Shown here: in pieces, positions 18,888-49,670 of the stretch | Numbering within the stretch: position 1 is the first letter of the stretch | How the letters are laid out: every line of letters starts with the position of its first letter | NCBI GenBank assembly: GCA_963741205.1 | Contig: CAVUHW010000043.1 | Coordinates: 35,500-99,499, forward strand | Origin: Nitrospirota bacterium | Lineage (GTDB): Bacteria > Nitrospirota > UBA9217 | Direction of reading: 5' to 3' | Length of the DNA stretch: 64,000 bases | Notes under the pieces: generated by a model | Told to the model about the DNA's origin: nothing | The model's input: the letters and a program-made list of their open reading frames with translations, nothing else | The model's database searches: none | Translations under genes and position numbers: made by a program

Positions 18888-21347
18888 ATGGACATCAAAG
18901 AACGAGAAGTGCCGGTTTCCGAACTTCGTCATGAAACCGATCCCGCGGTGTTCCCCTTCAGGACCACGGCGGACCTCACGCTCAAAGACGAGGTCATCGG
19001 GCAGGCGCGCGCCGTTCATGCCATCGAGTTCGGCCTCTCCATCAAGAACCACGGATACAACATCTTCGTCTCGGGCGTCCCCGGCACGGGCCGCAACTCC
19101 ATCGTGAAATCGCTGGTCAAGCGCATCTCCCAGGACCTCCCGGCGCCCGATGACTGGTGCTACATCAACAACTTCAAGGACCCCGACCGGCCGCTCTCCG
19201 TCCGCCTCCCCCAGGGCATGGGCGGCGAGTTCCGGCGCGACGTCGAAAGGTTCATCGACTTCATGCAAAATGAGATACCCAAGGTCTTCGACGCCAAGGA
19301 GTACGAGGAACAGAAGTCGCACATCGTCGGGGAGGCCGAGAAGGCGAAGGAAGTCCTTTTTGCCGAGGCCGCCAATCGCGCGCTGGAGCTCGGGTTCCAG
19401 CTCACGATCCGGCGCACCGGGATCGTCAAGGTACCGCAGTGGAAGGGCAAACCGCTCACCCCCGAAGAGCTGGAAAAGCTCACGGCCGAGCAGAAATTCG
19501 AACTCGAGGAACATGAGAAGAAAGTGGACGCCGAGATACGCGACTTCCTGTCCAAGGCGCGCCAGCTCGACAAGGAGGCCCACGAGAAGATCCATGAACT
19601 CAACCGGCGCGTGGCGCAATTTGCCATGGGACATCAGCTTGACGACCTCAGGGAGAAGTACCGCATTAATCCCCGCATTCCGGAGTTTCTGAGCAGCATG
19701 GAGGAGGACATACTCGGCAACCTGCGCGAGTTCCTGGGCCAGGCGCAGGAGACGCCGATCCCCCTGGAGGGGATGGACAGGGCGAGCTTCCTCGACCGCT
19801 ACAAGGTAAATCTCATCGTGGACAACGCCGAGACGAAGGGCGGGCCGGTGGTCGAGGAGGCGAATCCCACCTACGCCAACATCGTCGGCCGCATCGAGCG
19901 AAAGTCGCACTTCGGCGCGTCTCTACACGAATTTCACCATGGTCCGGTCGGGCTCGGTGCTTCACGCCAACGGCGGCTACCTCCTCCTGAACGCCCTCGA
20001 CGTGCTCAGAAACCCCTTCACCTGGGACGCGCTCAAGCGGATCATCAAGAAGAACGAGGTGAAGATCGAGGACGTCACGGAGCTCTACGGCTTCGGCACG
20101 GGGGGGATCAAGCCCGAACCCATCCCGGTGTCGCTCAAGATCATCATGCTCGGCAGCCCCTGGCTTTACTACCTCCTGTACTACTACGACGAGGACTTCC
20201 GCGACATCTTCAAGGTCAAGTCCGACTTCGACACCCGGACCGCGGCATCCGACGACGAGAAGATGCGCTACGCGAACTTCGTCGCGAACATGGTGAAGAA
20301 CGACGGCCTGCTCCCCTTCGACCGGAGCGCGGTGGCGGGGGTGGTGGACTACTCCGTGCGGCTCGCCGAGAAAAAGAACAAGCTCTCGCTCCGGTTCAGC
20401 GACCTGACGGACCTCGTGCGGGAGGCCTCGTACTGGGCGGCAAAGGCCGGAAGCGGCGCGGTGACGGCCGAGCACGTGGACAAGGCGCTCGACGAAAAGA
20501 TCTACCGCTCGAACCTCATCGACGAGCGGATGCAGGAGCTCTTTACCGAAGGAACGATCATGGTCGAGGTCTCGGGTTCCGTTGTCGGCGCAGGTGAACG
20601 GCCTGTCCGTGTACGACATCGGAGACTTCGCCTTCGGCAAGCCGTCGAAGATCACGAGCCGGGTCTATCTCGGCAAGGCGGGCGTCGTCGACATCGAGCG
20701 CGAGGCAAAACTTTCGGGCCGCATCTACAACAAGGGCGTGCTCATTCTCTCGGGCTATCTCGCCGGCGCTTTATGCCCAGGACAAGACGCTCTCCGTGTC
20801 CGCGACCCTCGCCTTCGAGCAGAGCTACGGCGAGGTGGAAGGCGACAGCGCCTCGGCCGCGGAGCTCATCGCGCTCCTCTCCGGCATTGCCGAGGCGCCG
20901 GTCAAACAGAACTTCGCCATCACGGGCTCGATCAACCAGAAGGGAGAGATCCAGCCCATCGGCGGCGTGAACGAGAAGATCGAGGGATTTTTCAGCGTCT
21001 GCAAGAACCGCGGCCTCACCGGCGAGCAGGGCGTGATCATCCCGCAGTTGAACGTGGCGAACCTCATGCTCAAAAAGGAAGTGGTCGAAGCGGTGAAAGA
21101 AGCTAAGTTCCGCATCTACGCGGTCAGGACCGTGAACGAGGCGCTGGAACTCCTGACGGGGCTTCCGGCGGGCGAGCGCCAGGCGGACGGGACCTGGCCC
21201 GAAGGCACGTTCAACTTCCTGGTCGACAAGCGGCTCAAGGAAATGGCGAAGAAGCTCAAGTCCGACGACAAGACCGAGGAAAAGAAGGAAAAGAAAGAGG
21301 AGAACAACGAGGCGGCGCCGAAGAAAGAGCCGACGCCGGAGTCGTAG
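18888..21347 (+). CDS. Lon-family protease (LonC/AAA_32 type; several indels)
   Basis: VIGQARA, GVPGTGR, DWCYINNF, HANGGYL, QVNGLSV, EGDSAS catalytic Ser, IGGVNEKIEG catalytic Lys. Confidence 0.92.
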
Positions 21348-23921: not shown

Positions 23922-24908
23922 GTGAAGATCGACTGCTATATATCACAGGGGTGCGGTTCCGAGGAAGCGCTAAAGGAAAACATCGCCCGCGCAGTGGAAG
24001 CGGAAAAGGTTTATGCCGAAGTCGGCTTTCACCGGATTGATGACGACGAGGCAATAAAACTGAAACTCAGCGGGTCGCCGTCGGTTTTTATTGATGGAAA
24101 AGAGCTGCAGCCGCAGGGCACGGTTGGATTTTCCTGAAGAATGTTTAAGGACGAGTCAGGAAGACTCGCAAATGTTCCCTCGGTGGAAACGCTGAGGGAA
24201 GCGATCGGAGCCCGGAGTGGACATTTGAAGAATATACCGGGTGAAGAGGCAACCTTTCTGAAAAGCCTCATGGACCAAATCGGCGATACGGTAAAAGGAA
24301 GAATATCGGAAGCACAATTAAGTCCCCTGGAGGACGAAGTACGAAAATATATTTTGAGAGACTTTGCCAGGACCGGCAAGCCCCCGTCCGATAAGGCAAT
24401 TACGGAGGCAATGAGGCTGCCATCCCTCGAATCGGCCCGCCAAATCGTTCAAAAACTTCACCGAGCGGACATTCTTACCCAAGAGGGGAATGAAATCATC
24501 TCGGCATATCCCTTTTCCGCGAAAGCGACGCGCCATAAAGTTGTTTTTCGTGACGGCCATGAGGTCTATTCCCTCTGCGCTACAGATGCTTTGGGCATCC
24601 ATTTCATGCTCCATGAGAATATTACCGTCCGTTCCCGGTGTCCTGAATGCGAAGGTGAAATGAGAATCGACGTAAAGGACGGCAGGGTCGCCTCCTCTGT
24701 TCCGGAAGGCGTGGTGGAATTCGTCAGCAAGAGAGAACAATGCGGATGTACGGCGAAGACCTTTTGCCCTTTTATGAACTTCTTTTGTTCCCGTGAACAT
24801 CTGGAAAAATGGAGAGAGAAAAATCCCGCCTACGCAAAGGGAGAAATGTACTTGCTTTCCCAGGTATTGGAGCACGGGAAACATATATTCGAAGACTTTC
24901 TGAAATAG
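23922..24908 (+). CDS. Thioredoxin-like domain fused to MerB-like organomercurial lyase through in-frame UGA (putative selenocysteine 72); 328 aa
   Basis: ORFs 23922-24137 and 24141-24908 share a frame, separated only by TGA-AGA; GSPSVFIDG..FS-U-RMF; MerB motifs SAYPFS, CATDAL, SRCPEC, FCPFMNFF. Confidence 0.8.
24139..24177 (+). promoter_or_regulatory. Putative bacterial SECIS element
   Basis: Lower stem GAAUGUUU/AAAUGUUC, upper stem CGAGUC/GACUCG, apical loop AGGAA 20 nt after the UGA. Confidence 0.65.
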
Positions 24909-27137: not shown

Positions 27138-28327
27138 CTACTCATATATCAAGAACTTCTTCCTCATTTTCTCGAACGCCTTCGCCTCTTCCTTCCACCA
27201 CGTCTCCATCTCATCGAGATCTTTCCATGCTTCGATGTCCTTTCGCAGGCGGTCGGTGCCGGCAAGAATGTCGATGGGGATTTTGACCTCCTCATACTCG
27301 TAGGGCGGCTCCTTCCATTTGAAGTCGCGCGGGATAGGTATTGTGGATCGCCTTCAGGATCGCCACGCCGGTCTTGAAGGGCTTGAACTTCTCGCGGTCG
27401 GTCACATGGATCTGGGCGCCGCCGCACAAAAGGCCGGCATGTTTTTGGAACGTGGGCTGGAATGAATGCGGCCGGAACGAGACGCCGGGCAGCCTGAATT
27501 CTCTCAGCACACTAACGACCGTCTCGGCATGGATGAACGGCGCGCCGAAGATCTCGAACGGCCTGGTCGTGCCGCGGCCTTCCGAGATGTTCGTCCCTTC
27601 GAACAGGCACATGCCGGGATAGACCAGCGCCGTGTCGAGGGTCGGCATGTTGGGCGAGGGTATGATCCAGGGAAGCTTCGTGTCGTCGAACCACATGGCG
27701 CGTTTCCATCCCTGCATGGGCATGACGCGGAAATCCAGGTCCGGATAAAAAGTTTTATGAAGATAATTCCCGATCTCGGCGATGGTCATCCCGTGGCGAA
27801 CGGGCAGGGGCTTGAGTCCGACAAAGGACGCGTAGCCCGGGTCGAGCACCGGCCCCTCGACAAGTCGTCCGCCAAGGGGATTCGGCCGGTCGAGGACGAT
27901 GACGGCCTTGCCCGCCTCTTGACAGGCCTGCATGCAGTGGTCCATGGTCCAGATGAAGGTGTAGTACCTGCTGCCCACGTCCTGCAGGTCGATGGCGAGC
28001 CACGTCGCAATGCTCCAGCATGGAATGGGTCGGTTTGCGCACCTTGCCGTAGAGGCTGTATACGGGAAGGCCGGAGGCGGGGTCGCGGAAGCCATCCCAC
28101 TCGACCATATTGTCCTGGGTCTGACCCTGGATGCCGTGCTGGGGTCCGAAAATTGCCGTCAGCCGGAATTTTTTCGACCAACGGAAAATGTTGACCGCGT
28201 GTTCGAACATGCTGTTGACCGAGGCGGGGTGGGCCACGAGCCCGACGCGGGCGCCTTTGAGGTCCCTGGGCCAGAGCTTTTCAACGAGGTCAAGACCGGT
28301 GAGGACGGCATGCTTTTTCGTCGTCAT
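27138..28327 (-). CDS. namZ: Exo-beta-N-acetylmuramidase NamZ / DUF1343 family (indels)
   Basis: FGPQHGI, VYSLYG, DLQDVGSRYYTF, LDRPNPLGG, RHGMTIAE, PSPNMP, SEGRGTTRPFE. Confidence 0.88.
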
Positions 28328-28442
28328 GCGCGGATTATAGTAAGTCCCCGGGGGAATAGCAACAGGAAATTTCTGCGCGGCGCCGGCATCAGTTATGGGG
28401 AAAGATAACGATCTTGTTGTCCGTCCCCATATTTGCCTAATG

Positions 28443-28470
28443 GTCATTCCCGAGCGTCTCTATCGGGAAT
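28443..28470. repeat. REP-like unit
   Basis: gtcattcccgagcgtctctatcgggaat, close match to 5156-5185. Confidence 0.6.
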
Positions 28471-28803: not shown

Positions 28804-30012
28804 CTACTGCTTCCGGACCTCAACGCGGCCGGTCATATACGCATGAATCGAGCAGAAATAATTATAAGTTCCCGGCCGATCGAACGTGCGGCTGTACGTC
28901 TTGCCGGGAAAGAGCGTATCGGAACCTTCAGAGCCGTCTTTGAACGCGACCGCGTGCGGGCCGCCATCTTGATTGTACCACAGGACGCTGTCGCCCGGGG
29001 CGACGGTGACAACCTGCGGCAGGAAAGCGAAATTAACGATCGATACCGTCGCGCCGGCGGCCGACGTCTGCACGACGACCTTGCGCGGCTGATTGCCGAC
29101 GGCGATCGTGACGGTCTTACCGCTTGCAATGTCCACGATTGACAGGGTATTTGAGCCTTCGTTCGTTACATAGGCGGTCTTGCCGTCGCCGGACACGGCC
29201 AGCCAGTGCGGCTGATCGCCCACCTTGATGCTGCGCACCGGTTTATTGGTCTTCGGGTCGAACAGAAAAAGTTCGCCGGGTCCCTGAACGATCGCCATGC
29301 CGAACATCGTGTTGCGGGGGTGGTTAACATAGTGAGGAGAGACCCCGGTAGGGATCTCCGCCACGATCTTATCGGACGCGGGATCGAGCACCTGGACCGC
29401 ATTGGCGCCGGCCTCGGTGAAATAGACCTTGCCGTCAAAGGAGTATTCCAGATCGCGGGGCGTTTTATCGAGCGGGATCGTTCGCAGGACGGTACGCGTC
29501 GCGAGGTCGATGATTGCCACGGCGAATCGACCCGGGACCTGAGACGATACATAAGCGGCCTTGCCATCGGGGCTGACTCCTATGGTATGCGGCTTCCCGA
29601 CGCCCACGGTGGCGACGACGGCCAGTTTCGCGGTGTCAACAAAAGCGATTTTGTCTTCGCCGTTGACAGCGACCAGCAGCAGGTCCTTGCCGGGCACGAG
29701 TGCGAGGCCGTGCGGAGATTTTCCGACTTCAACTGTGCCCGTAACGCGATCAACAAGAGTGTCAATGACGCTGATTGTCGAGGATCCGTCGCTGCTCGCG
29801 AAAAGCCGGCGGCCGTCCGGAGTAATGACCATGCCATGCGGCCCTGCGGCGATCGGTATGGTTGCGACGACCGTGCTCGTGGACGTATCGATCACGCTCA
29901 CCGTATTATCCTTGAAGTTCCCCACATAGGCCTTCGGACCGGCATTGGCGAGGCCGGATACCAGGCACAACGAAAGCGCTGCAATCAAAGACCGGACGAG
30001 ATTGAACCGCAT
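28804..30012 (-). CDS. Secreted YVTN beta-propeller protein with C-terminal cupredoxin domain
   Basis: Signal peptide, repeated PH(G)..PDG..YV blades, type-1 Cu ligands GPHAV and FCSIHAYM. Confidence 0.88.
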   Translation of the reverse strand: MRFNLVRSLIAALSLCLVSGLANAGPKAYVGNFKDNTVSVIDTSTSTVVATIPIAAGPHGMVITPDGRRLFASSDGSSTISVIDTLVDRVTGTVEVGKSPHGLALVPGKDLLLVAVNGEDKIAFVDTAKLAVVATVGVGKPHTIGVSPDGKAAYVSSQVPGRFAVAIIDLATRTVLRTIPLDKTPRDLEYSFDGKVYFTEAGANAVQVLDPASDKIVAEIPTGVSPHYVNHPRNTMFGMAIVQGPGELFLFDPKTNKPVRSIKVGDQPHWLAVSGDGKTAYVTNEGSNTLSIVDIASGKTVTIAVGNQPRKVVVQTSAAGATVSIVNFAFLPQVVTVAPGDSVLWYNQDGGPHAVAFKDGSEGSDTLFPGKTYSRTFDRPGTYNYFCSIHAYMTGRVEVRKQ

Positions 30013-30271
30013 AGGGAAATACATAGAAGCCTCCTTTCCCGAGGTTGAGCGCTCAGAATGGGCTCAGATGACGGGGATTCAATTATTCACCATGCTAGTT
30101 AAAAAATATCAAAAAAATCAATGTAGTCAATAGGACCAAAGTATGTGTATGGCGTTTGATCCGACATGACGAGTAGTCAGAAACTTCTTTGGGAATGCAC
30201 CTACTAATGGAGGTCAAATCCGGTAGTGAACTGCCGCTTCCTTCGCAATGCACGTACCTGACAGTATTTTA

Positions 30272-38636: not shown

Positions 38637-38853
38637 GGTTTCCTCCGTCGTCCACGCCATTGTACTTCATCGGCCGGGCGAACTCAAGCGCGTCAACTGT
38701 TTTTTTCCGGGGTTTACTCCCGCCAAAGTTATGGCTGTTATAATTTTTTTTTATTGACAAACAGATGACGGTTTATTTAATATGCACAGGTTTTCAGAAG
38801 TTTTGCTAATTTAAAATTTAATACTTATAGTCCTCACAGAGAGGGAGAAGCGT

Positions 38854-39229
38854 ATGACACCAAGTACCTATCTTCCGGAACACTTTCTGCCGGTGGTGGT
38901 TTTTCTGCTGCTCGGCGCCGTGGTCGGCGTAGGGATGCTGGTTGTCGAGCTGGATTCTCCGGCCGAGGAACCCCTATCCCGAAAAACTGATCACCTACGA
39001 GTCCGGCATCACCCCCTTCATGGACGCCCATCAGAAGTTTTCCATCCGTTATTACATCATCGCCATGCTGTTCCTCATCTTCGATATTGAAGCCGTTTTC
39101 CTCTATCCCTGGGCCGTCGCGTACAACCAGATCGGCCTCTACGGCTTTGTGGAGATGGTGATCTTCATCGCCATCCTGCTCGTGGGGTACATCTATGCAT
39201 GGAAGAAAGGGGCCCTCGAATGGGAGTAA
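38854..39229 (+). CDS. nuoA: NADH-quinone oxidoreductase subunit A (indel)
   Basis: [35 protein letters not shown]. Confidence 0.95.
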
Positions 39230-39699
39230 TCCAGAATCTGTTTGAAGAAGGGTATATCTCGACCACGCTGGACGGTTTTTTGAACTATTGCCGGTCCTGC
39301 TCCATCTGGCCGATGACGTTCGGCCTCGCCTGCTGCGCCATTGAAATGATCCAGTATTATTCCGCGCCTCAGCATGATTTCGACCGTTTCGGCACTGTGC
39401 CGCGTCCTTCGCCGCGGCAGTCCGATCTGCTGCTCGTCGCCGGTACGCTGTCGAAGAAGATGGCGCCCATCGTGCGCCGCGTGTACGATCAGATGCCCGA
39501 ACCGCGGTATGTCATCGCCATGGGCAGCTGCGCCGGCTCCGGCGGGATCTTCAATACCTACAGCGTCGTGCAGGGCGTGGATAACATCGTCCCCGTGGAC
39601 GTCTACATCCCGGGTTGCCCCCCGCGGCCCGAAGCCCTGATGAACGGCATCATGAAGCTTCAGGAAAAGATCAGAAAAGAGCATTACATCCGGAAGTAA
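39220..39699 (+). CDS. nuoB: NADH-quinone oxidoreductase subunit B
   Basis: [34 protein letters not shown]. Confidence 0.97.
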
Positions 39700-39782
39700 C
39701 AAGTCACCAACATACCGTTGCCACTTCACATGAAAACCGCGCACCACGAGCGTTCAGTCGGTGCGTCCAGGAACGAGGTTGT

Positions 39783-40255
39783 ATGGACCCCTTACAGATC
39801 GCCAAGATGATAGAAGAAAAATTTGCCGGGCCAGGTGCTCGGCACAACGGCCTATGCCGGGCAGGTCGGCGTCACGCTCAAGAAAGACCGTGATCAAAGA
39901 CATTTGTCTTTTCCTGCGTGATGAGCCCTCCCTCAAGATGGACCACCTTGCCGACCTCACTGCCGTCGATTTTTCCAAGTATCCCGGCGACACCGGGCCC
40001 CGGTTCGAAGTCGTATATAACATGATATCGACCGTTCACCATCACCGCATTCGTTTGAAGGTCAGGGTGCCGGAAGAGGACCCGAGGATAGACTCGGTCG
40101 CTTCGATCTGGCAGACGGCTAACTGGCACGAACGTGAGACCTTCGACCTCATGGGGATCAAGTTCGACGGCCATCCCGACCTCCGCAGGATCCTGCTGCC
40201 CGAGGACTGGGAAGGGCATCCGCTCAGGAAAGAATATCCGCTGAAAGGATACTGA
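39783..40255 (+). CDS. nuoC: NADH-quinone oxidoreductase subunit C (indels)
   Basis: ANWHERETFDLMGIKFDGHPDLRRILLPEDWEGHPLRKEYP. Confidence 0.95.
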
Positions 40256-40334
40256 AAAAACAAGTCAAGCCAAATCAAGACAAACAAATATTTCCTGGAC
40301 CTGAGTTGAAATTGGATTTTACTATGGTGAACAT

Positions 40335-41532
40335 ATGTCTCCTACCGATACGAAAAAAGAAATAGTCCAGAAAGAAATAACGCTCAACATGGGCCCCCAG
40401 CACCCGGCCACCCACGGCGTGCTGCGCCTGGTGGTCGACCTTCAGGGGGAGACCGTGTCGGGCTGCGACCCGCGGCCCGGCTACCTCCACCGCGGGATCG
40501 AGAAGTGGATGGAGAGCAGGACCTACCACCAGATCATCCCGATGACCGACCGGCTCGAGTACATCACCTGCATGAACAACAACCTCGGCTATGTCGTGGC
40601 GGTCGAGAAACTGGCCGGGATCACGGTGCCGGAGCGGGCGCAGTTCATCAGGACGCTCATGGCCGAGCTGACCCGCTTGTCCGGGCACCTCGTGTGGCTT
40701 GGCACCCACGCCCTCGACATCGGCGCCATGACGGTCTGCATGTACACGCTGCGCGAGCGGGAGCTTATCCTCGATCTTACGGAGATGGTCACCGGCGCGC
40801 GCCAGACCGTGAGCTATTGCCGCATCGGCGGGGTGCGGAACGACATACCCCGGGATTTCTTCGACAAATGCCGCGAGTTCACCGAGCTGTTTCCCAAGCG
40901 GCTCGAGGAGTATGATACGCTCATCCGGGAAAACCGCATCTGGCTTCAGCGCACCGTGGGCATCGGCGTGTTTTCAGCGGAGGACGCGGTCAATTACGGC
41001 CTCACGGGCGGCACCCTCCGCGGTTCGGGCGTGAACTACGACCTGCGCAAGGTCGAGCCCTATGCCGCCTATGATAAGGTCGAGTTCGACGTGCCGCTCG
41101 GAAAGAACGGGGACGTGTACGACCGGTACATCGTGCGTATCAACGAGATGCGCCAGAGCAACCGGATCATCAAACAGTGCCTCGACATGATGCAGCCCGG
41201 ACCCATCACGACCGACGACACCGCGCTATGCCATCCCCGAGAAGATGAAGGTCATGCAGAACATGTCGACGCTGGCCCATCAGTTCGTGCTCATGAGCAA
41301 GTGGGTGCCCATGCCCAAGGGCGAAGTGTACGTGGCCACCGAGGCGCCGAAGGGCGAGCTCGGCTTCTATATCGTAAGCGACGGGAGCGGCAGGCCGTAC
41401 CGCATCAAGATCCGCGCCCCTTCGTACGTGCACGTGAGCGCCCTCCCGAAAATGGTGACCGGGCATATGGTGGCGGACGTCATCGCCTGCATCGGCACGA
41501 TCGATATCGTGCTCGGCGAATGTGACCGGTAG
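40335..41532 (+). CDS. nuoD: NADH-quinone oxidoreductase subunit D (indel near 41230)
   Basis: [41 protein letters not shown]; no NiFe CxxC motifs. Confidence 0.97.
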
Positions 41533-41543
41533 GGAGCGGGACC

Positions 41544-41904
41544 ATGATGAAACTGAGAGAGATCATCAACCTTCTTCAGGCGCGAGGTCCTGGTCGGGGA
41601 CGGCCTCCTCGATGAGATCGAGGTGGACCGGTGCTTCAGCGCGGACCTCATGAGCGACGTGCTCGGCCGCACTCATGCGAACGGCATCCTGGTCACGGGG
41701 CTCACGAACCCCCAGGCGGTGCGGACGGCCGACATCGCCGATATCAAGGCGGTCTGCGTAGTGCGCGGGAAGCAGCCGGAAGCGGACACCATGGCGCTGG
41801 CAAAGCAGAAGGATATCCCCCTTTTCGTCACCAAGCTGACCATGTTCGAGGCTTGCGGCATTCTCTACATGAACGGTCTCAGAGGGGTGGCCGAGCGGCA
41901 ATAG
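41544..41904 (+). CDS. DRTGG domain protein
   Basis: ADLMSDVL, LVTGLTNPQAVRTA, VRGKQP, MFEACGILY. Confidence 0.88.
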
Positions 41905-41908
41905 ACTG

Positions 41909-42864
41909 ATGGCACAGCAGGGCAAAGAGCAGGAGACGCCGGACCGGTTGACCAAGACCCAGGAGATGGTCTATGAGCTCACCGTCGGCGAGGTCATGTC
42001 CCCCAAGATGGTCACCGTGGGGCCGGAACAGACCATGGCGGAGTTCAGGCTCATTCTGCGGGACAACCGCATCTCCGGCACGCCGGTGGTCGAGAACGGG
42101 AAGCTCGTGGGCATGGTCAGCATCGAAGACCTGATCAACGCCCTTTACGACAATGCGATCAACGCTCCCATCCGGGAGAGGATGAAGACGAAGGTCGAGT
42201 GCCTGTACGCCGACGAACTGCTGGTCCACTGCATCGCCAAGTTCTCCAAGACTGGGGTACCGGCGGTACCCGGTACTGAACCGGAAAGACGAGCTGGTCG
42301 GCATCGTCACCAAGGGAAGCATCGTCGAGGGCCTGCTCAAGAAGCTCGAGATCGAATACGAGCAGTCCGAGACGAAGGCCGACCTGAGCGCGTCAGCGGC
42401 CCACGATGAGGAAGTTCTTCGAGGACGTTACCGCCGACGAGATCAGCTTCACCTTTAAGTACAACGTCGCCGGTCAGACCCTGAAGGACGCAGGCAAGGC
42501 GGCGAGCGAACTCAAGAACGCGCTCAAGAAACTGGGCGTCTGCCCTCCGCTCCTCCGGCGGATCGGGGTAGCCACCTACGAGGCGGAGATCAACCTCGCC
42601 TCGTACACGCAGGGCGGCGAGATTCGGGCCCAGGTGGAAAAGTGGGGGATCATCGTGGAGGCGATCGACACCGGTCCCGGCATCCCCGACGTCGAGCGCG
42701 CCATGCAGCCGGGATATTCCACGGCCCCCGACTGGGTGCGGGAACTGGGGTTCGGCGCGGGCATGGGGCTGGTGAACATGAAGAAATGCGCCGATGAGAT
42801 GGACCTGAAATCGTCGGTGCCCGACGGAACGCATTTGACCATGCAGTTTTACTACACGAGTTGA
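41909..42864 (+). CDS. CBS-pair protein fused to RsbT-like anti-sigma/Ser-Thr kinase ATPase (indels)
   Basis: ISGTPVV..LVGMVS CBS motifs, then AGKAAS, YEAEIN, DTGPGIPD, GYSTA, GAGMGL. Confidence 0.85.
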
Positions 42865-42877
42865 CCGGGGGCCTACT

Positions 42878-43223
42878 ATGAAACTGAAGCGACCTTGTAA
42901 AGGAATTCGGTCTGGAAGTAAAAGCCGGGTTCCGGTCGCCTCGACAGCGAGGTGACCGGGGGATACGTAAGCGACCTCATGTCGGATGTGCTGGCCCATG
43001 CGGATGACGGGGTCCTCTGGGTCACGCTCCATATCCACCAGAACATCGTGGCGGTCGCGTCGCACAAGGGACTTGTCCGGCATCATCCTGGTCCAGGGCA
43101 GGGCAGCCGGAAAAGGACACCATTGCCAAGGCCGAGGAAGAGAACATCCCGATCATGGTGAGCGAGCTTTCGGCGTTCGAACTGGTCGGCAGACTATACA
43201 AGGCGGGGATCCGTGGCGCTTAG
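42878..43223 (+). CDS. Second DRTGG domain protein (indels)
   Basis: GGYVSDLMSDVL, WVTLHIHQNIVAVA. Confidence 0.82.
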
Positions 43224-43963
43224 GCGCATTAAGGCCGATCTGCACGTGCATACCTGTCTGTCTCCCTGCTCCGGCCTGGACATGTCGCCCCGAGAGGTCG
43301 TGAATGCGGCCCTGCAAAAGGGCATTGACCTGATCGGCAGTGTGCGACCATAATTCGGCGGAGAACGTTCTGGCCGTGAAGAAGGCGGGCAGGCGAAACG
43401 GGCTGATGGTGCTGGGCGGGATGGAAGTCGCCTCATCCGAAGAAGCGCACATCCTGGTGTTCTTTGACGATGACGACGACCTCCTGAATTTTCAGGAGTA
43501 TATTTACCGGCACCTGACGGGCAGGAACGATGAACGTTCCTTCGGCCTGCAGGTGATCGCGGATGACGAGGACGGGGTGACCGGTTTCTGCGACCGGCTC
43601 CTGATCGCGGCGACCTCGCTTCCGGCCGAAACGATCGTTGCGGCGGCCCGCGGGGCAAAAGGCGAAAGCCTCGTGATCGCCGCGCATGTGGACCGGGAGT
43701 CCTTCAGCATCATCGGACAGCTCGGGTTCATACCTCCCGGGCTTGGACCTGGATGCCGTTGAAATATCCGGCCGGATGACCGCGGCCGACGCTGGTGAGC
43801 CCGATATCCCGACTGCTGGAACTACCCGGTCATAACCGGTTCCGACGCGCACGGCCCCGAGGACATCGGCAAGCGCTTTACCTGGCTTACGGTCGAAGAC
43901 GGGACCATAGCCGAGATCAAAAAGGCCCTGGCCGGCAGGGACGGCAGGAAGGCGGAGTGCTGA
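43213..43963 (+). CDS. PHP-domain phosphoesterase (indels)
   Basis: DLHVHTCLSPC, CDHNSAEN, GME..EEAH, AAHVDR, SDAH. Confidence 0.88.
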
Positions 43964-43967
43964 GGCC

Positions 43968-44501
43968 GTGGAAGATATCTCGCTCCATATCCTCGACATC
44001 GCCGAGAATGCGGTCCGCGCCGATGCAAAGAACAATAGAGATCATCGTCATCGCGGGAGGGCGGGACCTTCTCCGCGTCGAGGTGAATGACGACGGCAGG
44101 GGAATGGACGCCGCGACGCTTGCAAGGGTCCGGGACCCGTTCTTCACCACGAAGCGAAGAAGACAGGTCTTGGGAATACCGCTCTTGTCCCAGGCAGCGG
44201 AACAGGCGGGCGGAAACGTATGCCGTGGATTCCGCTCCGGGCAGGGGCACGAGGGTGGCGGCCACCTTCCCTTGGAACCATGTGGACCGGCCGCCGGTCG
44301 GCAGCATGGCGGATACGCGTCCTGACGCTGATCGCCGGCCACCCGGACAGGGAGTATATATATGAAGAACGGGAAGGGGACCGCTCCTTCCGGTTCGACA
44401 CACGGGAGATCAAGGCCGATCTCGACGGGGTCCCGATCACCGAGCCGGCGGTGCTCGCGGCGATCAGGGGCATGCTGAAAGAAAATATCAGGATCATTTG
44501 A
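43968..44501 (+). CDS. HATPase_c domain protein (indels)
   Basis: ISLHILDIAEN, DDGRGMD, DPFFTT, HVDRPP.G. Confidence 0.85.
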
Positions 44502-44533
44502 AAGTAAAATTTCAAATCGCGAAGAGGTAGACG

Positions 44534-45060
44534 ATGAGTAACGAAGCTGCCGTACAAGAACAAGACAGACTGCAAGCGCCGACAGATGGATACGTTCATA
44601 ACGCCCGAGCATGTACCAGAAGATCGACGTGATCATCGAAAAGTACAGGGACAAGCCCGGATCGCTCATCCCGGTGCTCCAGCAGGCGCAGGACGTCTGC
44701 GGCTATCTGCCGCACGTCGTGCAGCGATATGTCGCCAGGGGGATGAAGATGTCGCCGAGCGTGGTGTTCGGCGTGGCCACCTTCTATTCATTCTTCACCC
44801 TGGTGCCGCGCGGCAAGCACGTGATCCGGGTCTGCCTCGGCACGGCCTGCTACGTGAAGCGGAGCGAGGAGATCCTCGACAAGATCAAGGCCGAGATGGA
44901 CCTCGAGGTCGGCGAGGTTACCCGGGACAAGAAGTACTCCCTCGAGGCCGTGCGGTGTCTCGGCGCCTGCGGTCTCGCGCCGGTCGTGGTCATCGGGCAG
45001 GACACCTACGGCGACGTGGCGGCGACCAAGGTGATGGATATCATTAAGAAGTACGAATAG
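44534..45060 (+). CDS. nuoE: NuoE / HydC-like [2Fe-2S] subunit
   Basis: LIPVLQ, GVATFY, VCLGTAC, RCLGACGLAP. Confidence 0.9.
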
Positions 45061-45119
45061 CATTGCGAAATTTGAAATTTGTCGAATCTACACTGATTCG
45101 GACTACCGAAGGTGGACAT

Positions 45120-45497
45120 ATGGCAAAGCTGACGATCGCTGATTTGAAAAAGATCAAGGAAGACTACCATCAGGGACTGCGCGAGGGCGGGTTCCGGGCC
45201 AAGATCACGGTGCATATGGGGACCTGCGGGATCGCAGCGGGCGCCCGGGGCATCATGAACACGATCATGGAGGAGCTGGCCAAATCCGGGCTGAAGGATG
45301 TCGCGATAACCACTTCGGGATGCGCCGGCCTTTGCAGCCAGGAGCCGATGGCCACGATCGAACTTGCCGGCGAACCCCCGGTGAAATATATCGCGCTGAC
45401 CGAGGACAAGATGCGCAAGATCTTCGCCGAACACGTGGTGGGCGGCAAGCCGGTCGCGGAGTACGCCCTGGTCGTGGGGCATGAGACGACGTACTGA
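45120..45497 (+). CDS. Thioredoxin-like [2Fe-2S] ferredoxin (HydD/HndB-like)
   Basis: VHMGTCGIAAGAR, SGCAGLCSQEP. Confidence 0.88.
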   Translation: MAKLTIADLKKIKEDYHQGLREGGFRAKITVHMGTCGIAAGARGIMNTIMEELAKSGLKDVAITTSGCAGLCSQEPMATIELAGEPPVKYIALTEDKMRKIFAEHVVGGKPVAEYALVVGHETTY

Positions 45498-45502
45498 CAA
45501 AT

Positions 45503-45600
45503 GATTGGAAATTGGAAATTGTAGATTGGAAATTAAAGATTGAAGCAAACATCGATTCTACAAATTTAAAATTTCCAATTTTCAATCTTCAATTTTCAAT
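45503..45600. repeat. Intergenic 7-bp periodic inverted element
   Basis: attggaa-attggaa-attgtag-attggaa ... ttccaat-tttcaat-cttcaat-tttcaat. Confidence 0.75.
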
Positions 45601-45621
45601 ATAGTTACGGAGTAAATAACA

Positions 45622-47418
45622 GTGGAAACGACACTATCGTTCAAACATAATGATCTGCGCAGGAACGGGCTGCGTGGCAAACGGATCGCTCAAGGTGAAG
45701 GACGCGCTCGAGACCGAGCTGATCAAGCGAAACCTCCAGAATGAGATCAAGATCGTCCTGACCGGGTGCAACGGGTTCTGCGCCAAGGGCCCGGTCATGG
45801 TGGTCTACCCCGAGGACATCTTCTACCAGCTCGTGAAGCCCGAGGACGTGCCGCACCTCGTTGAGGAACACTTCATCAAGGGCAGGCCGGTCCAGAAGTT
45901 CCTGTACACGCCGCCGACGGAAAAGAAGACGATCCCCGTGATGAACGAGATCCCGTTCTTCAAGCACCAGGTGCTCCGCGCGCTCCGGAACCGGAGCCTC
46001 ATCGACGCCGAGAAGATCGAGGAGTACATCGCCCGCGACGGGTACATGGCCGCGGCCAAGGCGCTCACGGAAATGACGCCCGAGCAGATCGTGGCCGAGG
46101 TGAAAAAATCGGGGCTGCGCGGCCGCGGGCGGCGCGGGGTTCCTGACCGGCCTCAAGTGGGAGCTCTGCGCGCGTGTTCACGGGCGATATCAAATACATC
46201 CTGTGCAACGGCGACGAGGGCGACCCGGGCGCGTTCATGGACCGGAGCGTCATGGAGGCGGACCCCCACTCGGTGCTCGAAGGCATGATCATCGCCGCCA
46301 AGGGCATCAACGCCCATTACGGTTATATCTATGTGCGGGCCGAGTATCCGCTCGCCGTGCACCGTCTCCAGCTGGCCATTGACCAGGCCAAGGAACGGGG
46401 TCTTCTGGGCAAGGACATCCTCGGCACCGGGTTCGACCTCGACATCGAGATCTACCAGGGAGCCGGCGCCTTCGTGTGCGGCGAGGAGACGGCGCTCATG
46501 GCCTCCATCGAGGGCAAGCGCGGCATGCCGAGGGCCAAGCCGCCGTTCCCCGCGGTCAAGGGTCTGTGGCAGCGGCCGTCGGTGCTGAACAACGTCGAGA
46601 CCTTCGCAAACGTTCCGCCGATCATCCTGAACGGCGCGGACTGGTTCGCGAGCCTCGGGTCCGAAAAGAGCAAGGGCACGAAGGTGTTCGCGCTGTCCGG
46701 AGCGCTGAACAACATCGGCCTCGTCGAGGTGCCCATGGGCATCCCGCTCAAGACCATCATCTTTGACATCGGCGGCGGCATCAAGGACAACCGGAAGTTC
46801 AAGGCCGTGCAGATGGGCGGTCCCTCGGGCGGCTGCATTCCCCATTCGCTCATCGACACGCCCGTGGATTTCGAGAACATCAACAAGACCGGCGCGATCA
46901 TGGGGTCCGGCGGCATGGTGGTGATGGACGAGACCACCTGCATGCCGGCCATGGCAAAGTTCTTCCTCGAGTTCACCGAGGACGAGTCATGCGGCAAGTG
47001 CGTGCCCTGCCGGATCGGGAACAAGACGCTTCTCACCATCCTGCACCCGGATCACGAACGGCGAGGGCCGCGAAGGCGACATCGAACTCCTGCTCGCCCT
47101 TTCCCAGCAGATCAAGGACACCTCGCTCTGCGGCCTGGGCCAGACCTCGCCGAACCCGGTGCTTACCACGATCAAGTATTTCCGGGACGAGTACGAGGCG
47201 CACATCAAGGACCACCGATGCCCGGCGCAGGGTCTGTACGCCCCTCGTCAAGTTCATGGTGGACGAGGAGAAATGCAAGAAGTGCGGCCAGTGCTTCAAG
47301 GACTGCCCGGTGGGCGCCATCAAGTGGGAAAAGGGCAAGGTCGCGTACATCGATCAGGAAAAGTGCACGCAAGTGCAAGACCTGCATCAAGAACTGCAGG
47401 TTCTGGTCGATCGATTAA
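45622..47418 (+). CDS. nuoF: Long NuoF / HydB-type flavoprotein (N-terminal [2Fe-2S], FMN/NADH, C-terminal 2x[4Fe-4S]; indels)
   Basis: [76 protein letters not shown]. Confidence 0.92.
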
Positions 47419-47534
47419 GATAACAGTGAATTTTGCCACGGAACGCGCGAAGCACGCGAAGAAATTAGATAAAGGCTCTATGGACTCCGTGTCTTTGTGG
47501 CAGGAAGACATGCGTTATAAGAAGGTAAATCATT

Positions 47535-49670
47535 ATGCAAAAGATGACGGTAACAGTTGACGGAAAAAAGGTCGAGGTCCCCATCGGGCTCGACCATCCT
47601 CGAGGCGGCGAACGCCGCCGGGTCGCGGGTGCCGACCCTGTGCCACGACAACAAGCTCCATCCTTTCGGCGCGTGCCGGGTCTGCCTCGTCGAGGTGGAA
47701 GGCACGCCGCGCAAGTTCACGCCGTCGTGCACGACGCCGGCCACGGACAACATGGTCGTGAGGACCACGTCGCCCGCGCTCATCGAGGCGCGGCGGATGG
47801 TGCTCGAACTCCTCCTGATCAAGCACCCCCTGGACTGCCCGGTCTGCGACAAGGCGGGCGAGTGCCAGCTCCAGGACCTGGTGCACGAGTACGGGCTCGG
47901 CAAGAGCCGGTTCGACGCGGAAAAGGGATACCTCCCGCCGGACTACGAGAGCTCCGATCGTCGAGCGCAACATCAGCCGCTGCATCCTCTGCGGCAAGTG
48001 CGTCAGGATCTGCGACGAGCAGAACGGCGTGGGCGAGTGGGCCTTCACCCGCAGGGGCACGCGGGCCCGGATCAGCACCGATTTCGACCGGCCGCTGGAC
48101 TGCGAGTTCTGCGGCGAATGCACCGAGATCTGCCCCGTGGGCGCGCTCACCACGCGCCAGTTCAAGTACAAGGCCCGGTCGTGGAACCTCGAAGGGACGA
48201 CATCGGTCTGCAATTACTGCGGCTGCGGCTGCGGCATCAGCTACGAAACGCGTGACGGCAAGATCATGCGGGTCGGGCCCTGCGCGGAACAACTACCTCT
48301 GCGCCAAGGGCCGGTTCGGCTGGGACGCCGTCCATTCCGCGCGAGCGGCTTACCACGCCGAAGATGCGCGTGGGCGGCGAACTCGTGGATTGCACCTGGG
48401 ACGAGGCGCTGTCCGTCATCGCGACCAACCTCAAGGTGATCAGGGACAAGACGCGGCGCCGGGAGCATCGGCGGGCTCGGTTCGGTCCGGACCACGAACG
48501 AGGACAGCTACGTGTTCCAGAAGTTCCTCCGCACCGTGGTCGGGACCGGCAATGTGGACATGCTGGCCAGGCTCAAGGTCCCGAAGGGGCTGAACACGGC
48601 GTTCTTTTCCGGGGAACTCGCCCGCATGACAGGAGCACGAGGTCATCCTCGTGCTCGACAAGAACGTGGGCGAGATCAATCCGCTCACCGGCATCGAGAT
48701 CGTGCGCGCCGTGAACAAAAAGGACCGGAAGGTGATCCTCGTGAACGAGGAGTTCAACAAGTTCAACAAGATCGCGACCGTGGTCATGCCGGTGGGCACG
48801 GACCAGGCGATCGAGGAGCTGCGTGGCGGCCCTCTCTTCCTCAACGGGAAGCGACGCTGCGAACAAGGCGGCCGCACTCCTGAAGAATGCCAAGAGCGTC
48901 GCGATCATCGTTCCGGCCCGGATTTCGGACAAGGAACTGGCCGGCATCAAGGAACTGGGCGGGACAGCTCAAGAACGTGACGTACTATCCTCTTGTGCGG
49001 CGGAGCAACTTCCAGGGTTCGCTTGACATGGGTATCGATTTCCGGATATCTGCCGGGCTACCGGAAGGCGGAGAAACCGGGTTTGAACGCCGTTGAGATG
49101 ATCGACGCCGTCAAGAGCGGCAAGCTTGCCGCGCTGTACATCATGGGAGACGATCCCGTGGGGAGCGATCCGGACCTCAAGCCAGTCCTCGAAAAGCTCG
49201 AATTCCTCGTGGTCCAGGACATCTTCATGACCGAGACCGCGAAGCTCGCCCAGGTGGTGCTCCCGGCCGCAAGTTCGGCGGAGAAGACCGGCACGTTCAC
49301 CAATCTGGAGCGCAGGCTCCAGCAGCTGAACAAGGCGGAGGAGCCGGTCGGCGAATCCCGGCCCGACTGGGAGATCATCCAGGACGTCGCGAAGAGGATG
49401 GGCGGGTCCATGAACTACGGCTCTCCCCGGGAAATCCTGAAGGAAATCAGGTCCGTCGGTCCCGATGTACGGCGAACTCGCTGCGGGCGCCTGCTGGGCA
49501 GCGCGAGAAGTCGCCGCTTGCCGGCACGGCCGTGGACCTTTCGCTTGCATCGGACTCGATCATGAAACAGGAAGTCATCACCGCCGAGCGGCTGCTTGTT
49601 CTCCTCGGGGACGAGCATCACGCGTTCCCATGAGATAGGGACCATCCGACATTACAAGATCGAAGTGTAG
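47535..49670 (+). CDS. nuoG: NuoG-like Fe-S subunit with degenerate molybdopterin-oxidoreductase fold (many indels)
   Basis: [75 protein letters not shown]. Confidence 0.88.

Follow-up and report, generated by a model that had tools for sequence, protein, structure and literature searches.

A conserved kinase, DRTGG and PHP gene cassette embedded in a predicted Nuo-Bfu operon of an uncultured Nitrospirota bacterium

Results

Gene content of the operon

The window analysed here is a stretch of 64,000 nucleotides from an uncultured anaerobic Nitrospirota bacterium. Its forward strand carries a complete nuoA-N operon, from nuoA (38854) to nuoN (57455), which we assigned by Pfam searches of 122 stop-to-stop segments. 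Upstream of the cassette described below lie the quinone-module subunits: nuoA (38854-39229, Oxidored_q4, one frameshift), nuoB (39199-39699, Oxidored_q6), nuoC (39783-40255, Complex1_30kDa, two frameshifts) and nuoD (40335-41532, Complex1_49kDa, one frameshift). Five tightly packed genes, g1 to g5, then fill the interval from the nuoD stop (41532) to the nuoE start (44534), co-oriented with the flanking structural genes and with intergenic spacing of -11 to +33 nt. They encode a DRTGG protein of about 118 aa (g1, 41544-41904), a protein of about 318 aa in which a CBS pair is fused to a GHKL Ser kinase domain of the SpoIIAB/RsbW/RsbT type (g2, 41909-42864), a second DRTGG-like protein of about 116 aa (g3, 42878-43223), a PHP phosphoesterase of about 248 aa (g4, 43213-43963, overlapping the g3 stop by 11 nt) and a stand-alone GHKL ATPase domain of about 176 aa (g5, 43968-44501). 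Both the gene set and its tight packing had been named correctly in a preliminary description, as Pfam searches of the window and of orthologues from another Nitrospirota assembly (L001) confirm.

Downstream of the cassette, nuoE is of the HydC/BfuC type (44534-45060; Pfam 2Fe-2S_thioredx, E 1e-49; one frameshift near 44601). The interval between nuoE and nuoF holds an extra gene with an intact frame (45120-45497) for a small [2Fe-2S] thioredoxin-like ferredoxin, which has weak Pfam and NCBIfam 2Fe-2S ferredoxin matches. It is followed by nuoF of the HydB/BfuB type (45605-47423; five to seven frameshifts; identified by Pfam on fragments and by the orthologue in a further Nitrospirota assembly, L002), nuoG (47535 to about 49640; Pfam; ten frameshifts) and nuoH, I, J, K, L, M and N, all found by Pfam and ending at 57455. 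The L002 NuoG scores 441 bits against the NCBIfam NuoG model, slightly under the cut-off of 470, and the best full-length PDB match of NuoG is mycobacterial NuoG (8E9G_G, 307 bits).

As the preliminary description had stated, no hydrogenase is present: we found no catalytic subunit in the operon or among the 116 segments of at least 128 aa outside it. The sole NiFeSe_Hases match is a sub-threshold one on the nuoD segment (23.6 bits, cut-off 25.8), which is expected because these subunits are homologous. Pfam detected no DNA-binding, sigma-factor or response-regulator domain in the operon, and Rfam and tRNA scans of the window returned no RNA genes. Neither promoter-like sites (9 versus 6.8±2.5 in shuffles) nor terminator-like sites (22 versus 15.0±3.6) were enriched. 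The best promoter-like sites, at 38754-38831, lie 5' of nuoA and belong to this class that is not enriched over shuffles. There is no convincing forward-strand terminator between nuoD and nuoE, which is weak evidence either way.

Frameshifts and the integrity of the locus

None of g1 to g5 is an open frame in the window, a point absent from the preliminary description. Frameshift-aware alignment to orthologues calls for 1, 2, 5, 3 and 3 shifts in g1 to g5, respectively (4-5 in g3). The g1 shift lies near 41583 and the g2 shifts near 42251 and 42390; the kinase domain of g2 (42406-42864) is a single open frame. From nuoA to nuoG the total is 36 shifts, 33 of them one surplus base, and their approximate positions show no obvious pattern of homopolymer context. 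Amino-acid identity across the shifts is about 66-94%, with the minimum in g5 (114 of 174 aligned residues). Splits of this kind also occur in genes elsewhere in the window and in four related loci from long-read-style MAGs (L028, L029, L035 and L038).

The junctions are identical, and the genes intact, in two further Nitrospirota assemblies, a 10.7-kb scaffold (L001) and a 2.35-Mb contig (L002). In both, nuoABCD-g1..g5-nuoE-ferredoxin-nuoF-nuoG is collinear with the window at about 80% nucleotide identity, with gaps of 3-22 nt. Because intact genes stand in the same order there, assembly errors most likely account for the breaks in the window but not for the join. A misjoin at nuoD or nuoE, which the preliminary description had offered as a refutation, thus becomes very improbable. 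GC content is 0.61-0.63 across nuoD and the module, with no compositional break at either junction.

NuoE and NuoF are of the bifurcating type

The preliminary description assigned the genes after the cassette to the NADH input module of a respiratory complex I. This assignment does not hold in its canonical sense. NuoF matches HydB of bifurcating hydrogenases over its full length (7T2R_B, NiFe-HydB, 850 bits; 7Q4V_B, 802 bits), against 383-388 bits for E. coli NuoF and Thermus Nqo1, with the latter (2FUG_1, 388 bits) aligning over the core only. It has an N-terminal [2Fe-2S] domain, an FMN/NADH core and two C-terminal [4Fe-4S] clusters; in the 602-aa L002 NuoF, Pfam places 2Fe-2S_thioredx at 12-88 and Fer4 at 550-598, and both are also found on the window fragments. 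The best PDB matches of NuoE are HydC subunits of bifurcating hydrogenases (141-148 bits, versus 78 for Thermus Nqo2), and its homologues at 89-96% identity bear Nitrospirota names. We rejected a canonical complex I NADH module, in which NuoF has about 440 aa, on the length of NuoF here (about 602 aa), its extra Fe-S domains and its HydB-like bit scores.

Schut et al. 2022 (PMC9304861) describe Nuo-Bfu as a predicted complex I of 14 subunits that includes a BfuABC module, place Planctomycetes and Nitrospirae in BfuB clade 39, and predict that Nuo-Bfu uses NADH and ferredoxin simultaneously (confurcation) with menaquinone. The extra Fe-S domains of NuoF/BfuB are missing from non-bifurcating Nqo1/NuoF. 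Since NuoE and NuoF are of the HydC/HydB type, we assign the operon to the Nuo-Bfu type and regard its product as a predicted Nuo-Bfu complex. As in Nuo-Bfu, nuoA-N form one cluster with HydC/HydB-type NuoE and NuoF in its middle, here and also in L001 and L002, and NuoF has the extra N- and C-terminal Fe-S domains. The operon differs in the five accessory genes and the extra ferredoxin embedded between nuoD and nuoF, whereas the paper describes 14 subunits; its text and supplement, as searched, contain no occurrence of a kinase, PHP or DRTGG gene.

The cassette proteins

g1 matches Pfam DRTGG weakly (E 1.2e-3, 19.1 bits, cut-off 25.2), and the L001 orthologues of g1 and g3 also score below the cut-off (E about 1e-4; 1.2e-4 for g3). 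A sequence-only PDB search with g1 gave chance-level matches only (E > 0.06). The AlphaFold model of g1 (pLDDT 93.9) resembles the DRTGG structure 2IOJ (TM 0.78), the DRTGG domain of CBS-PPase (TM 0.72) and the HPr kinase N-domain (TM 0.61), and no STAS fold appears among the structure matches listed (ranks up to 50). Because the Pfam scores lie below the curated cut-off, the predicted DRTGG fold of g1 rests on the model. Residues D33, S36 and L39 are invariant in 64 orthologues, in a DLMSD motif (Ser36 in L001 numbering). For g3, the window fragments have no Pfam match; its Atlas neighbours bear DRTGG/Hpr_kinase_N, and D32 and S35 are invariant in 60 orthologues at the same motif position as in g1.

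g2 has two CBS matches and a HATPase_c_2 match in the window (E 6.8e-9), and the HATPase_c_2 match of its L001 orthologue (E 2.3e-9) is above the cut-off. The kinase domain scores 46 bits against NCBIfam spIIAB (TIGR01925), under the cut-off of 135, and matches SpoIIAB in the PDB (1TIL, E 3e-5; also 1L0O and 1TH8). We regard it as a probable member of the same superfamily branch as SpoIIAB/RsbW, not an equivalog. The N-box residues E225, E227 and N229 and the lid G281-N290 are invariant in 50 orthologues. The best 120 matches of g2 are proteins of uncultured Nitrospirota, 82-100% identical, and the gene is therefore under constraint.

g4 matches PHP_C in the window (E 5.3e-7), and its L001 orthologue matches both PHP and PHP_C. 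H11, H13, D45, H46, E71, H79, H158, D210, H212 and a CLSPC motif are conserved in 56 orthologues, and a PDB sequence search returned EndoQ-type and PHP amidohydrolase matches only. g5 matches HATPase_c in the window (E 4.4e-7) and more strongly in its L001 orthologue (E 5.5e-16), over residues 8-102; a unique but conserved C-terminal extension of about 70 aa follows. Its N-box and its G1 and G2 boxes are conserved in 50 orthologues. Both the PHP metal ligands of g4 and the ATP-binding boxes of g5 are kept. The g5 model (pLDDT 93.8) is closest to the MutL N-domain and Topo VI-B (TM 0.59), with the WalK CA domain at TM 0.47. We considered and rejected a two-component histidine kinase for g5: Pfam finds neither a DHp/HisKA domain in g5 nor a cognate Response_reg match in the operon.

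A modelled complex of the g2 kinase domain with g1 scored 0.67, a measure of model confidence, against 0.00 for the best of three controls, with input alignments built in this analysis. Of 157 solved complexes, 116 attain a score of 0.67, as do 2 of 215 mismatched pairs. At least 90% of contacts are common to the runs, and the partner pLDDT is 88 or higher. In the model, g1 residues 33-37, including the invariant Ser36, contact the kinase at 224-225 (N-box) and 280-290 (ATP lid). g1 is thus predicted to bind g2 with Ser36 against the ATP lid, and the model makes the phosphorylation switch of the preliminary description plausible.

Related loci and trees

How general is this arrangement? We mapped the loci of the best 80 of at least 596 confirmed relatives of the g2 kinase, a sample and not a census, and screened them with 13 query families. 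All five genes lie on one strand in 52 of the 80 loci. A Bfu-type NuoF, detected as a NuoF-type ORF, falls within the fetched stretch in 68, and a ferredoxin homologue adjoins NuoF in most. The count of 68 is a lower bound, because several of the 12 loci that lack NuoF are short contigs, and it does not in itself prove linkage. The partner enzyme varies: [NiFe] in 21 loci, [FeFe] in 10, Fdh-like only in 5, nuo in 4 and a divergent nuo in 1. These maps suggest that the cassette follows the BfuBC flavoprotein core, not the catalytic partner. The preliminary description had tied the gene set to [FeFe]-hydrogenase operons. That association exists, in the 10 loci with multimeric [FeFe] genes, but among these best 80 of at least 596 the nearest cassette relatives mostly adjoin [NiFe]- and Fdh-type enzymes.

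Its further proposal, that the target is the HydBC/NuoEF part and not the H-cluster, agrees with the frequency of NuoF beside varying partners. In L004 and L008, however, g1-g2(-g3) stand next to a [NiFe] hydrogenase of the NAD(P) type, which includes an FAD/NAD-binding subunit, and NuoEF is absent. Three more loci (L007, L030 and L059) have a g1-g2 pair with no redox partner in the fetched stretch; a PadR-type regulator follows the pair in L007. The target may therefore extend beyond BfuBC.

The sensor is interchangeable. Of the 80 loci, 59 have a kinase fused to a CBS pair and 19 have a HydS-like gene adjacent to a kinase without CBS, and none has both; 7 of 19 representatives scanned are kinase-Fer4-Fe_hyd_lg_C-FeS fusions. 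Gene order varies as well, being g1-g2-nuoABCD-g3-g4-g5-nuoE-ferredoxin-nuoF-nuoG in L037 and L038, and g1-kinase-HydS-like-g3-PHP plus NuoE-g5-ferredoxin-NuoF-HydA in Bacillota. Our full-text literature searches found no paper on such a cassette inside a nuo operon, and the available passages of a 2018 review (PMC6288185) include none on regulators.

In the NuoF tree, the three nuo-linked rows form one group (SH-aLRT 90) nested in a starred 23-row clade, whose other, cassette-bearing rows have [NiFe] (11), Fdh-like (1) or unassigned (8) partners. In the kinase tree, nuo-linked kinases occupy two starred clades; their placement in a single clade is rejected by an AU test (p 0.0138). A single origin of the nuo-embedded cassettes is thus unrejected by the NuoF tree but rejected by the kinase tree and the AU test, and plain joint inheritance of NuoF and the entire cassette is an incomplete account. 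Apparently, this complex I acquired its part for NADH input, together with the switch, from enzymes of the hydrogenase type. The cassette is probably present because the operon shares descent with Bfu modules of hydrogenase type, and not because a hydrogenase regulator moved to an ordinary complex I.

Discussion

Bfu-type bifurcating enzymes hold a central place in anaerobic energy metabolism, yet to our knowledge no control of their activity has been described. Across many phyla, these enzymes have the five gene families as neighbours, under the label 'maturation and/or regulation'. We propose, at roughly even odds, that the five genes are a conserved accessory cassette of the Bfu-type module, inherited with nuoE-ferredoxin-nuoF, and that they form a phospho-relay resembling a partner switch. 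In this relay, the GHKL Ser kinase g2 would be gated by its own CBS pair, which a neighbouring or fused HydS-like Fe-S sensor would replace in Bacillota. g2 would bind the DRTGG protein g1 and phosphorylate the invariant Ser of its DLMSD loop, and the PHP phosphoesterase g4, encoded beside the paralogous DRTGG protein g3, would remove the phosphate. The phosphorylation status of the DRTGG proteins, possibly together with g5, would then tune the activity or assembly state of NuoE-ferredoxin-NuoF. We infer the phosphotransfer, the roles of g3, g4 and g5 and the relay target, and NuoEF may be the direct target. It is the presence of the CBS pair that suggests a ligand and energy-charge sensing. 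More generally, and with considerably less confidence, a widespread relay made of a sensor-swappable Ser kinase, two DRTGG proteins with an invariant Ser, a PHP phosphatase and a GHKL ATPase might reversibly phosphorylate a small gating protein of the bifurcating module.

If this is true, a proton-pumping complex I would be under direct post-translational adenylate or redox control in these Nitrospirota and in some Thermodesulfobacteriota. The relay would also be the first regulator known for either Bfu-type enzymes or the input module of a bacterial complex I, with DRTGG in the role held by STAS elsewhere. A cassette that follows the core, a swappable sensor and a predicted docking site for a Ser together replace a vague annotation with a concrete hypothesis open to bench tests. 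Models of Nuo-Bfu should include the cassette and the small ferredoxin of anaerobic Nitrospirota.

Could the cassette instead serve maturation or assembly? g5, the PHP protein and the DRTGG proteins would then aid FMN or Fe-S loading or ferredoxin docking, and the 'kinase' would be an ATP-dependent chaperone or checkpoint. g5 often sits between nuoE and the ferredoxin gene, amid structural genes; its top structural matches are non-kinase folds and it has no DHp domain; and the whole cassette is co-oriented and tightly packed among structural genes. However, a SpoIIAB-type kinase with an exchangeable sensor, CBS or HydS-like but never both, is a hallmark of signal input and not of a maturase, and the invariant Ser is modelled at the ATP lid. 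Moreover, T. maritima HydABC produced in E. coli without the cassette genes was reportedly active. We consider this explanation unlikely.

Somewhat less likely still is transcriptional control through an unlinked partner, in which g2 would be an anti-sigma-like kinase with the DRTGG proteins as antagonists, as in SpoIIAB/SpoIIAA, and the output would be expression of the operon. The nearest named families of the g2 domain are indeed anti-sigma F factors, JGI names the protein 'anti-sigma regulatory factor (Ser/Thr protein kinase)', and L007 has its PadR-type regulator. But the operon in the window lacks a sigma-factor or DNA-binding gene, the locus maps (as screened with the 13 query families only) show no such conserved neighbour, and regulator genes in mid-operon, among structural genes, are unusual for a transcriptional switch. 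An artefact or relic, meaning either that an assembly rich in errors was misjoined at nuoD/nuoE or that the cluster consists of decaying pseudogenes, is very improbable and largely refuted: 14 frameshifts lie within 3 kb and affect all five genes and most neighbours, but the junctions recur with intact genes in L001 and L002, the surplus bases also hit essential nuo genes, identity persists across the shifts, other long-read-style MAG loci are broken alike and GC is continuous.

The proposed relay resembles the SpoIIAB-SpoIIAA-SpoIIE and RsbW/RsbT-RsbV/RsbS-RsbU/RsbX systems. A small HATPase_c_2 GHKL Ser kinase directly follows a small single-domain partner, whose conserved Ser is predicted to face the kinase ATP site, and a dedicated phosphatase gene lies nearby. 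Unlike in those systems, the g1 partner has a predicted DRTGG fold and not STAS; the phosphatase is PHP and not PP2C, with no PP2C domain detected by Pfam in the operon; and the kinase bears a CBS pair, with redox-enzyme neighbours and no sigma factor in the operon.

The accessory genes of bifurcating hydrogenases are from the same families and stand beside NuoE/ferredoxin/NuoF-type genes, as in the hyd operon of Thermoanaerobacter tengcongensis with its DRTGG/PHP/HATPase genes. Here, in contrast, the partner is complex I, a CBS pair replaces the HydS-like sensor and the five genes are contiguous. Group C1 sensory [FeFe] hydrogenases are kinase-linked. PMC11406978 notes only a HATPase_c domain on them. 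The Acetomicrobium mobile NiFe-HydABCSL operon has accessory genes 'HisK', 'HydD' and 'HydP', and the purified enzyme consists of five subunits only, without 'HisK' (PMC8880783); on that account g5-type proteins are not stable subunits.

A CBS pair and a DRTGG domain also come together in the CBS-DRTGG-CBS insert of family II pyrophosphatase (3L2B, 3L31), to which the g1 model is similar, as noted above, and which the g2 CBS region matches weakly by sequence. That insert, which binds adenine nucleotides, belongs to one allosterically regulated chain, whereas here the domains are on separate proteins encoded with a kinase and a phosphatase.

The operon and its cassette

The most economical account of our results is that complex I of these anaerobic Nitrospirota takes in electrons through a Bfu-type module, i.e. 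an electron-bifurcating flavoprotein module of the HydB/HydC type, and that the five genes between nuoD and nuoE (g1-g5) are the usual accessory cassette of that module. Pfam searches of all 122 + strand stop-to-stop segments of at least 40 aa place a single nuo operon on the + strand of the window, at 38.85-57.46 kb. Its order is nuoA, B, C, D, the cassette, nuoE, a small 2Fe-2S ferredoxin gene, nuoF, nuoG and nuoH-N; a DUF1207 gene comes next. Bounded by the nuoD stop (41532) and the nuoE start (44534), the cassette comprises g1 (41544-41904, +; a weak DRTGG match), g2 (41909-42864, +; a CBS pair and HATPase_c_2), g3 (42878-43223, +), g4 (43213-43963, +; PHP_C) and g5 (43968-44501, +; HATPase_c). 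Gene spacing ranges from an 11-nt overlap to 33 nt, and GC content stays at 0.61-0.63 across nuoD and the cassette without a break. The Pfam matches and gap measurements agree with the preliminary description, which had located these five genes at 41544-44501. Its statement that no hydrogenase is present also holds, as none occurs among the genes of the remaining window.

Elsewhere, the window has housekeeping genes for L19, RNase HII, S1, ferrochelatase, UroD, MltA, CCA/polyA polymerase, dCTP deaminase and RNase II/R. Further genes encode a fragment of a DDE transposase (6377-7144, +; DDE_Tnp_1_4, covering just profile positions 210-414), a protein with a MerB-like alkylmercury lyase domain (24138-24905, +) and a beta-propeller protein ending in a cupredoxin domain (28807-30063, -).

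All five cassette genes are interrupted in the window, like most of the nuo genes. We counted shifts by frameshift-tolerant dynamic programming of intact orthologous proteins against the window DNA and found 1 in g1, 2 in g2, 5 in g3, 3 each in g4 and g5, 1 each in nuoA, nuoD and nuoE, 2 in nuoC, 7 in nuoF (two of them, at the extreme N-terminus, doubtful) and 10 in nuoG. A single surplus base explains 33 of the 36 shifts over nuoA-nuoG (38854-49640). Across the shifts, nuoF (564/601) and g2 (283/318) retain the most identity to their orthologues and g5 (114/174) the least. Similar fragmentation is seen in other long-read-style MAG loci (L028, L029, L035 and L038). We therefore read the frameshifts as assembly indel error rather than gene decay, and the window-wide pattern looks like a systematic insertion error of the assembly; the homopolymer context at the shift sites showed no clear pattern. 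Outside the operon, a radical-SAM/TRAM gene (2464-3686), a Lon-like protease gene (18816-21344) and NamZ (27295-28459) are split over frames.

Two Nitrospirota loci, L001 (Nitrospirae GWC2_56_14) and L002 (a 2.35-Mb contig), follow the window's gene order from nuoA on, with every gene intact and the packing equally tight. Nucleotide identity to the window lies mostly at 79-81%, with 88% reached in nuoF. Since the cassette junctions recur with intact genes in both, a misjoin of the assembly can be dismissed, and the cassette is still linked to nuo in relatives. The preliminary description's own test for refutation is thereby answered. The 120 NuoE matches listed are 89-96% identical, and the few with organism names come from Nitrospirota/Nitrospirae MAGs. 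The 120 best g2 homologues are all 82-100% identical and from uncultured sources; those with named sources are almost all Nitrospirota MAGs, with one labelled Betaproteobacteria. We found no cultured carrier of a nuo-embedded cassette among these 120.

Type of the NADH module

By sequence, the NADH module of this operon is of the hydrogenase (Bfu) type. NuoF (602 aa) carries a 2Fe-2S domain at its N-terminus and a 2x[4Fe-4S] domain at its C-terminus. Its PDB matches extend over the whole protein for the B subunits of bifurcating hydrogenases (7T2R_B, 850 bits; 7Q4V_B, 802 bits), but only over the core for Thermus Nqo1 or E. coli NuoF (383-388 bits). NuoE likewise scores 141-148 bits against HydC versus 67-78 bits. 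NuoG resembles a respiratory or Fdh-type G subunit. The Geobacter-type operon for Nuo-Bfu, a predicted complex I with a Bfu-type input part, is not known to carry the cassette. The Nuo-Bfu complex itself was already predicted, and BfuB clade 39 was assigned to Planctomycetes and Nitrospirae (Schut et al. 2022, PMC9304861); the text passages and one supplement file of that work that we consulted make no mention of the kinase, PHP or DRTGG genes. The small thioredoxin-like [2Fe-2S] ferredoxin gene (45120-45497) between nuoE and nuoF has a homologue beside the Bfu-type NuoF in most of the 80 loci surveyed below, and the ferredoxin is not among the 14 Nuo-Bfu subunits counted in the consulted passages of PMC9304861.

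Related loci

The one intact piece of the window kinase (152 aa) served as query for its kinase domain in a whole-library search, which returned 1340 proteins of three length classes at E <= 1e-3. Pfam on 19 of these identified 10 CBS-kinase fusions, 2 stand-alone kinases and 7 kinase-Fer4-Fe_hyd_lg_C-FeS fusions. Alignment A1 (41 representatives plus the window piece) was used to scan genome contigs, giving at least 600 pattern matches, of which 596 were confirmed. The best 80 of these were taken with up to 10 kb of flank; they are the confirmed matches most similar to the window kinase and not a census. All ORFs of at least 50 aa were searched with profiles from L001/L002 proteins, and partner proteins were assigned by Pfam on 35 representatives, from which the remaining ones were classified.

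Of the 80 loci, 68 contain a NuoF-type ORF and 52 have all five cassette genes on one strand. The partners are diverse: nuoABCD on the same strand in 4 loci (L001, L002, L037 and L038) and divergent in 1 (L011), a [NiFe] large subunit in 21, [FeFe] HydA in 10, only formate-dehydrogenase-like genes in 5 and only a 1080-aa NuoG-like/Pyr_redox_2 protein in 4. No partner was identified in the fetched stretch of 35 loci, many of them short contigs. There are exceptions to the pairing with NuoEF. In L004 and L008, which lack NuoEF, g1-g2(-g3) adjoin a [NiFe] hydrogenase that includes an FAD/NAD-binding subunit; in L007, L030 and L059, only g1-g2 occur, next to unrelated genes.

The cassette can also be split. 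In a Thermodesulfobacteriota MAG (L037, 2254-13567) and a second MAG labelled Actinomycetes (L038, 9090-20411), the order is g1-g2-nuoABCD-g3-g4-g5-nuoE-Fd-nuoF-nuoG, Fd being the small ferredoxin. This arrangement around the quinone-module genes suggests that g1-g2 and g3-g4-g5 are separable units.

The kinase is fused to CBS domains in 59 of the 80 loci. In 19, almost all labelled Bacillota, a CBS-less kinase is followed by a HydS-like protein, an Fe-S sensor-type protein with Fe_hyd_lg_C and a PF04060 FeS domain (L052, L056-L060, L063, L064, L066, L068, L070, L071, L073, L074 and L076-L080). The two inputs never coincide in a locus, and 2 loci lack both. In P0144, P0146, P0148, P0164, P0170, P0208 and P0227, the kinase is fused to the HydS-like part (Fer4, partial Fe_hyd_lg_C and PF04060).

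The ~1080-aa protein (L005, 10024-13269; L009, 12022-15273; about 12 more loci) joins a NuoG-like N-terminus to Pyr_redox_2 and Fer4 and is an unusual BfuA-like subunit; in Planctomycetota, Cloacimonadota, Acidobacteriota and other groups, its gene stands between the cassette and the genes for the [NiFe] small and large subunits. Two clusters of [NiFe]-Bfu type encode, immediately adjacent to NuoE, a 400-aa protein with Fer4 and Nitrate_red_gam (membrane haem-b type) domains (L019, 12085-13287; L024, 4815-6029), which hints at a membrane anchor. The formate-dehydrogenase-like genes of L003 (3270-5726) and L032 (15615-18341) are two adjacent ORFs split within the molybdopterin domain, a pattern that an in-frame TGA (selenocysteine) would give. 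Two successive NuoE-NuoF pairs lie between the cassette and a NuoG-like gene in 12 Chloroflexota loci (L021, L034, L035, L039, L040, L048, L050, L053, L054, L065, L067 and L075), with NiFe small and large subunit genes next in several.

Cassette proteins and their possible function

The intact orthologues clarify the protein families. Those of g1 and g3 match DRTGG at E ~1e-4, under the Pfam cut-off; that of g2 has two CBS domains and HATPase_c_2, its closest NCBIfam model being anti-sigma F factor at a score far under the cut-off; that of g4 has PHP and PHP_C; and that of g5 has HATPase_c only. The AlphaFold model of g1 (pLDDT 93.9) resembles the DRTGG protein AF1212 (2IOJ, TM 0.78), the DRTGG domain of CBS-pyrophosphatase (0.72) and the HPr kinase N-domain (0.61). 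The g5 model (pLDDT 93.8) has a GHKL fold, closest over its whole length to the MutL N-domain and Topo VI-B (TM 0.59), and over its first 100 residues matches histidine-kinase CA domains (TM 0.47).

All five proteins have conserved positions. D33, S36 and L39 in the DLMSD loop are invariant in 64 g1 orthologues, as are D32 and S35 at the equivalent place in 60 of g3. The g2 N-box (E225, E227 and N229) and ATP-lid glycines are invariant in 50 orthologues, and the N, G1 and G2 boxes are retained in 50 of g5. Both g2 CBS domains keep a G-h-h-S/T-x-x-D stretch, which we take to be the ribose-binding motif. The complete His/Asp/Glu set expected of PHP metal sites is conserved in 56 g4 orthologues, together with CLSPC. 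This Cys-x-Ser-Pro-Cys (g4 of L001, gene at 4698-5444; alignment A6) comes right after the HxH metal motif; S17 and C19 are invariant, P18 nearly so, and Cys predominates at the first position. The motif may serve as an additional metal site or be sensitive to redox state.

A complex model of the g2 kinase domain (residues 160-318, alignment A4) and g1 (alignment A2) had a median score of 0.67, versus 0.00 for the best of 3 controls. Among solved complexes, 116 of 157 attain this mark, against 2 of 215 mismatched pairs; this calibration holds only roughly with our own alignments. Runs shared at least 90% of contacts, with partner pLDDT of at least 88. In the model, g1 residues 33-37 pack against kinase residues 224-225 and 280-290, so the invariant Ser loop is predicted to face the ATP site, as expected of a substrate. 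We know of no solved kinase-DRTGG complex, and it therefore seems unlikely that the score reflects a memorised structure.

We propose that the five proteins would form a relay similar to partner-switching systems but with unusual components, a DRTGG protein taking the place of STAS and a PHP enzyme that of PP2C. Its sensor would be exchangeable, either a HydS-like protein or a CBS pair, whose ligand in g2 may be an adenylate. The relay would act post-translationally on NuoE-Fd-NuoF. We favour such an effect because the cassette has no DNA-binding part, lies among structural genes and tracks the flavoprotein core whatever the partner. The main rival is that the cassette is a maturation system. 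The NiFe-HydABCSL purified by Feng et al. (PMC8880783) was without the HisK-type protein of its operon, and in the portions consulted they simply assumed a role in 'maturation and/or regulation'.

Evolution

As a rule, the cassette clearly moves together with the Bfu core. A quick ML tree of NuoF (56 rows: the ORFs of at least 560 aa nearest the kinase, without L038 and other fragmented or short rows) groups L001, L002 and L037 (SH-aLRT 90) inside a starred 23-row clade, whose other rows are 11 [NiFe]-linked, 1 Fdh-like and 8 without an identified partner. The 50-row tree of the kinase separates the Nitrospirota pair from the L037/L038 pair, placing them in different starred clades, and the AU test rejects grouping the four nuo-linked kinases together (p 0.0138). 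The nuo-embedded cassettes may have more than one origin, or may have undergone repeated reshuffling, in keeping with the differences in their gene order.
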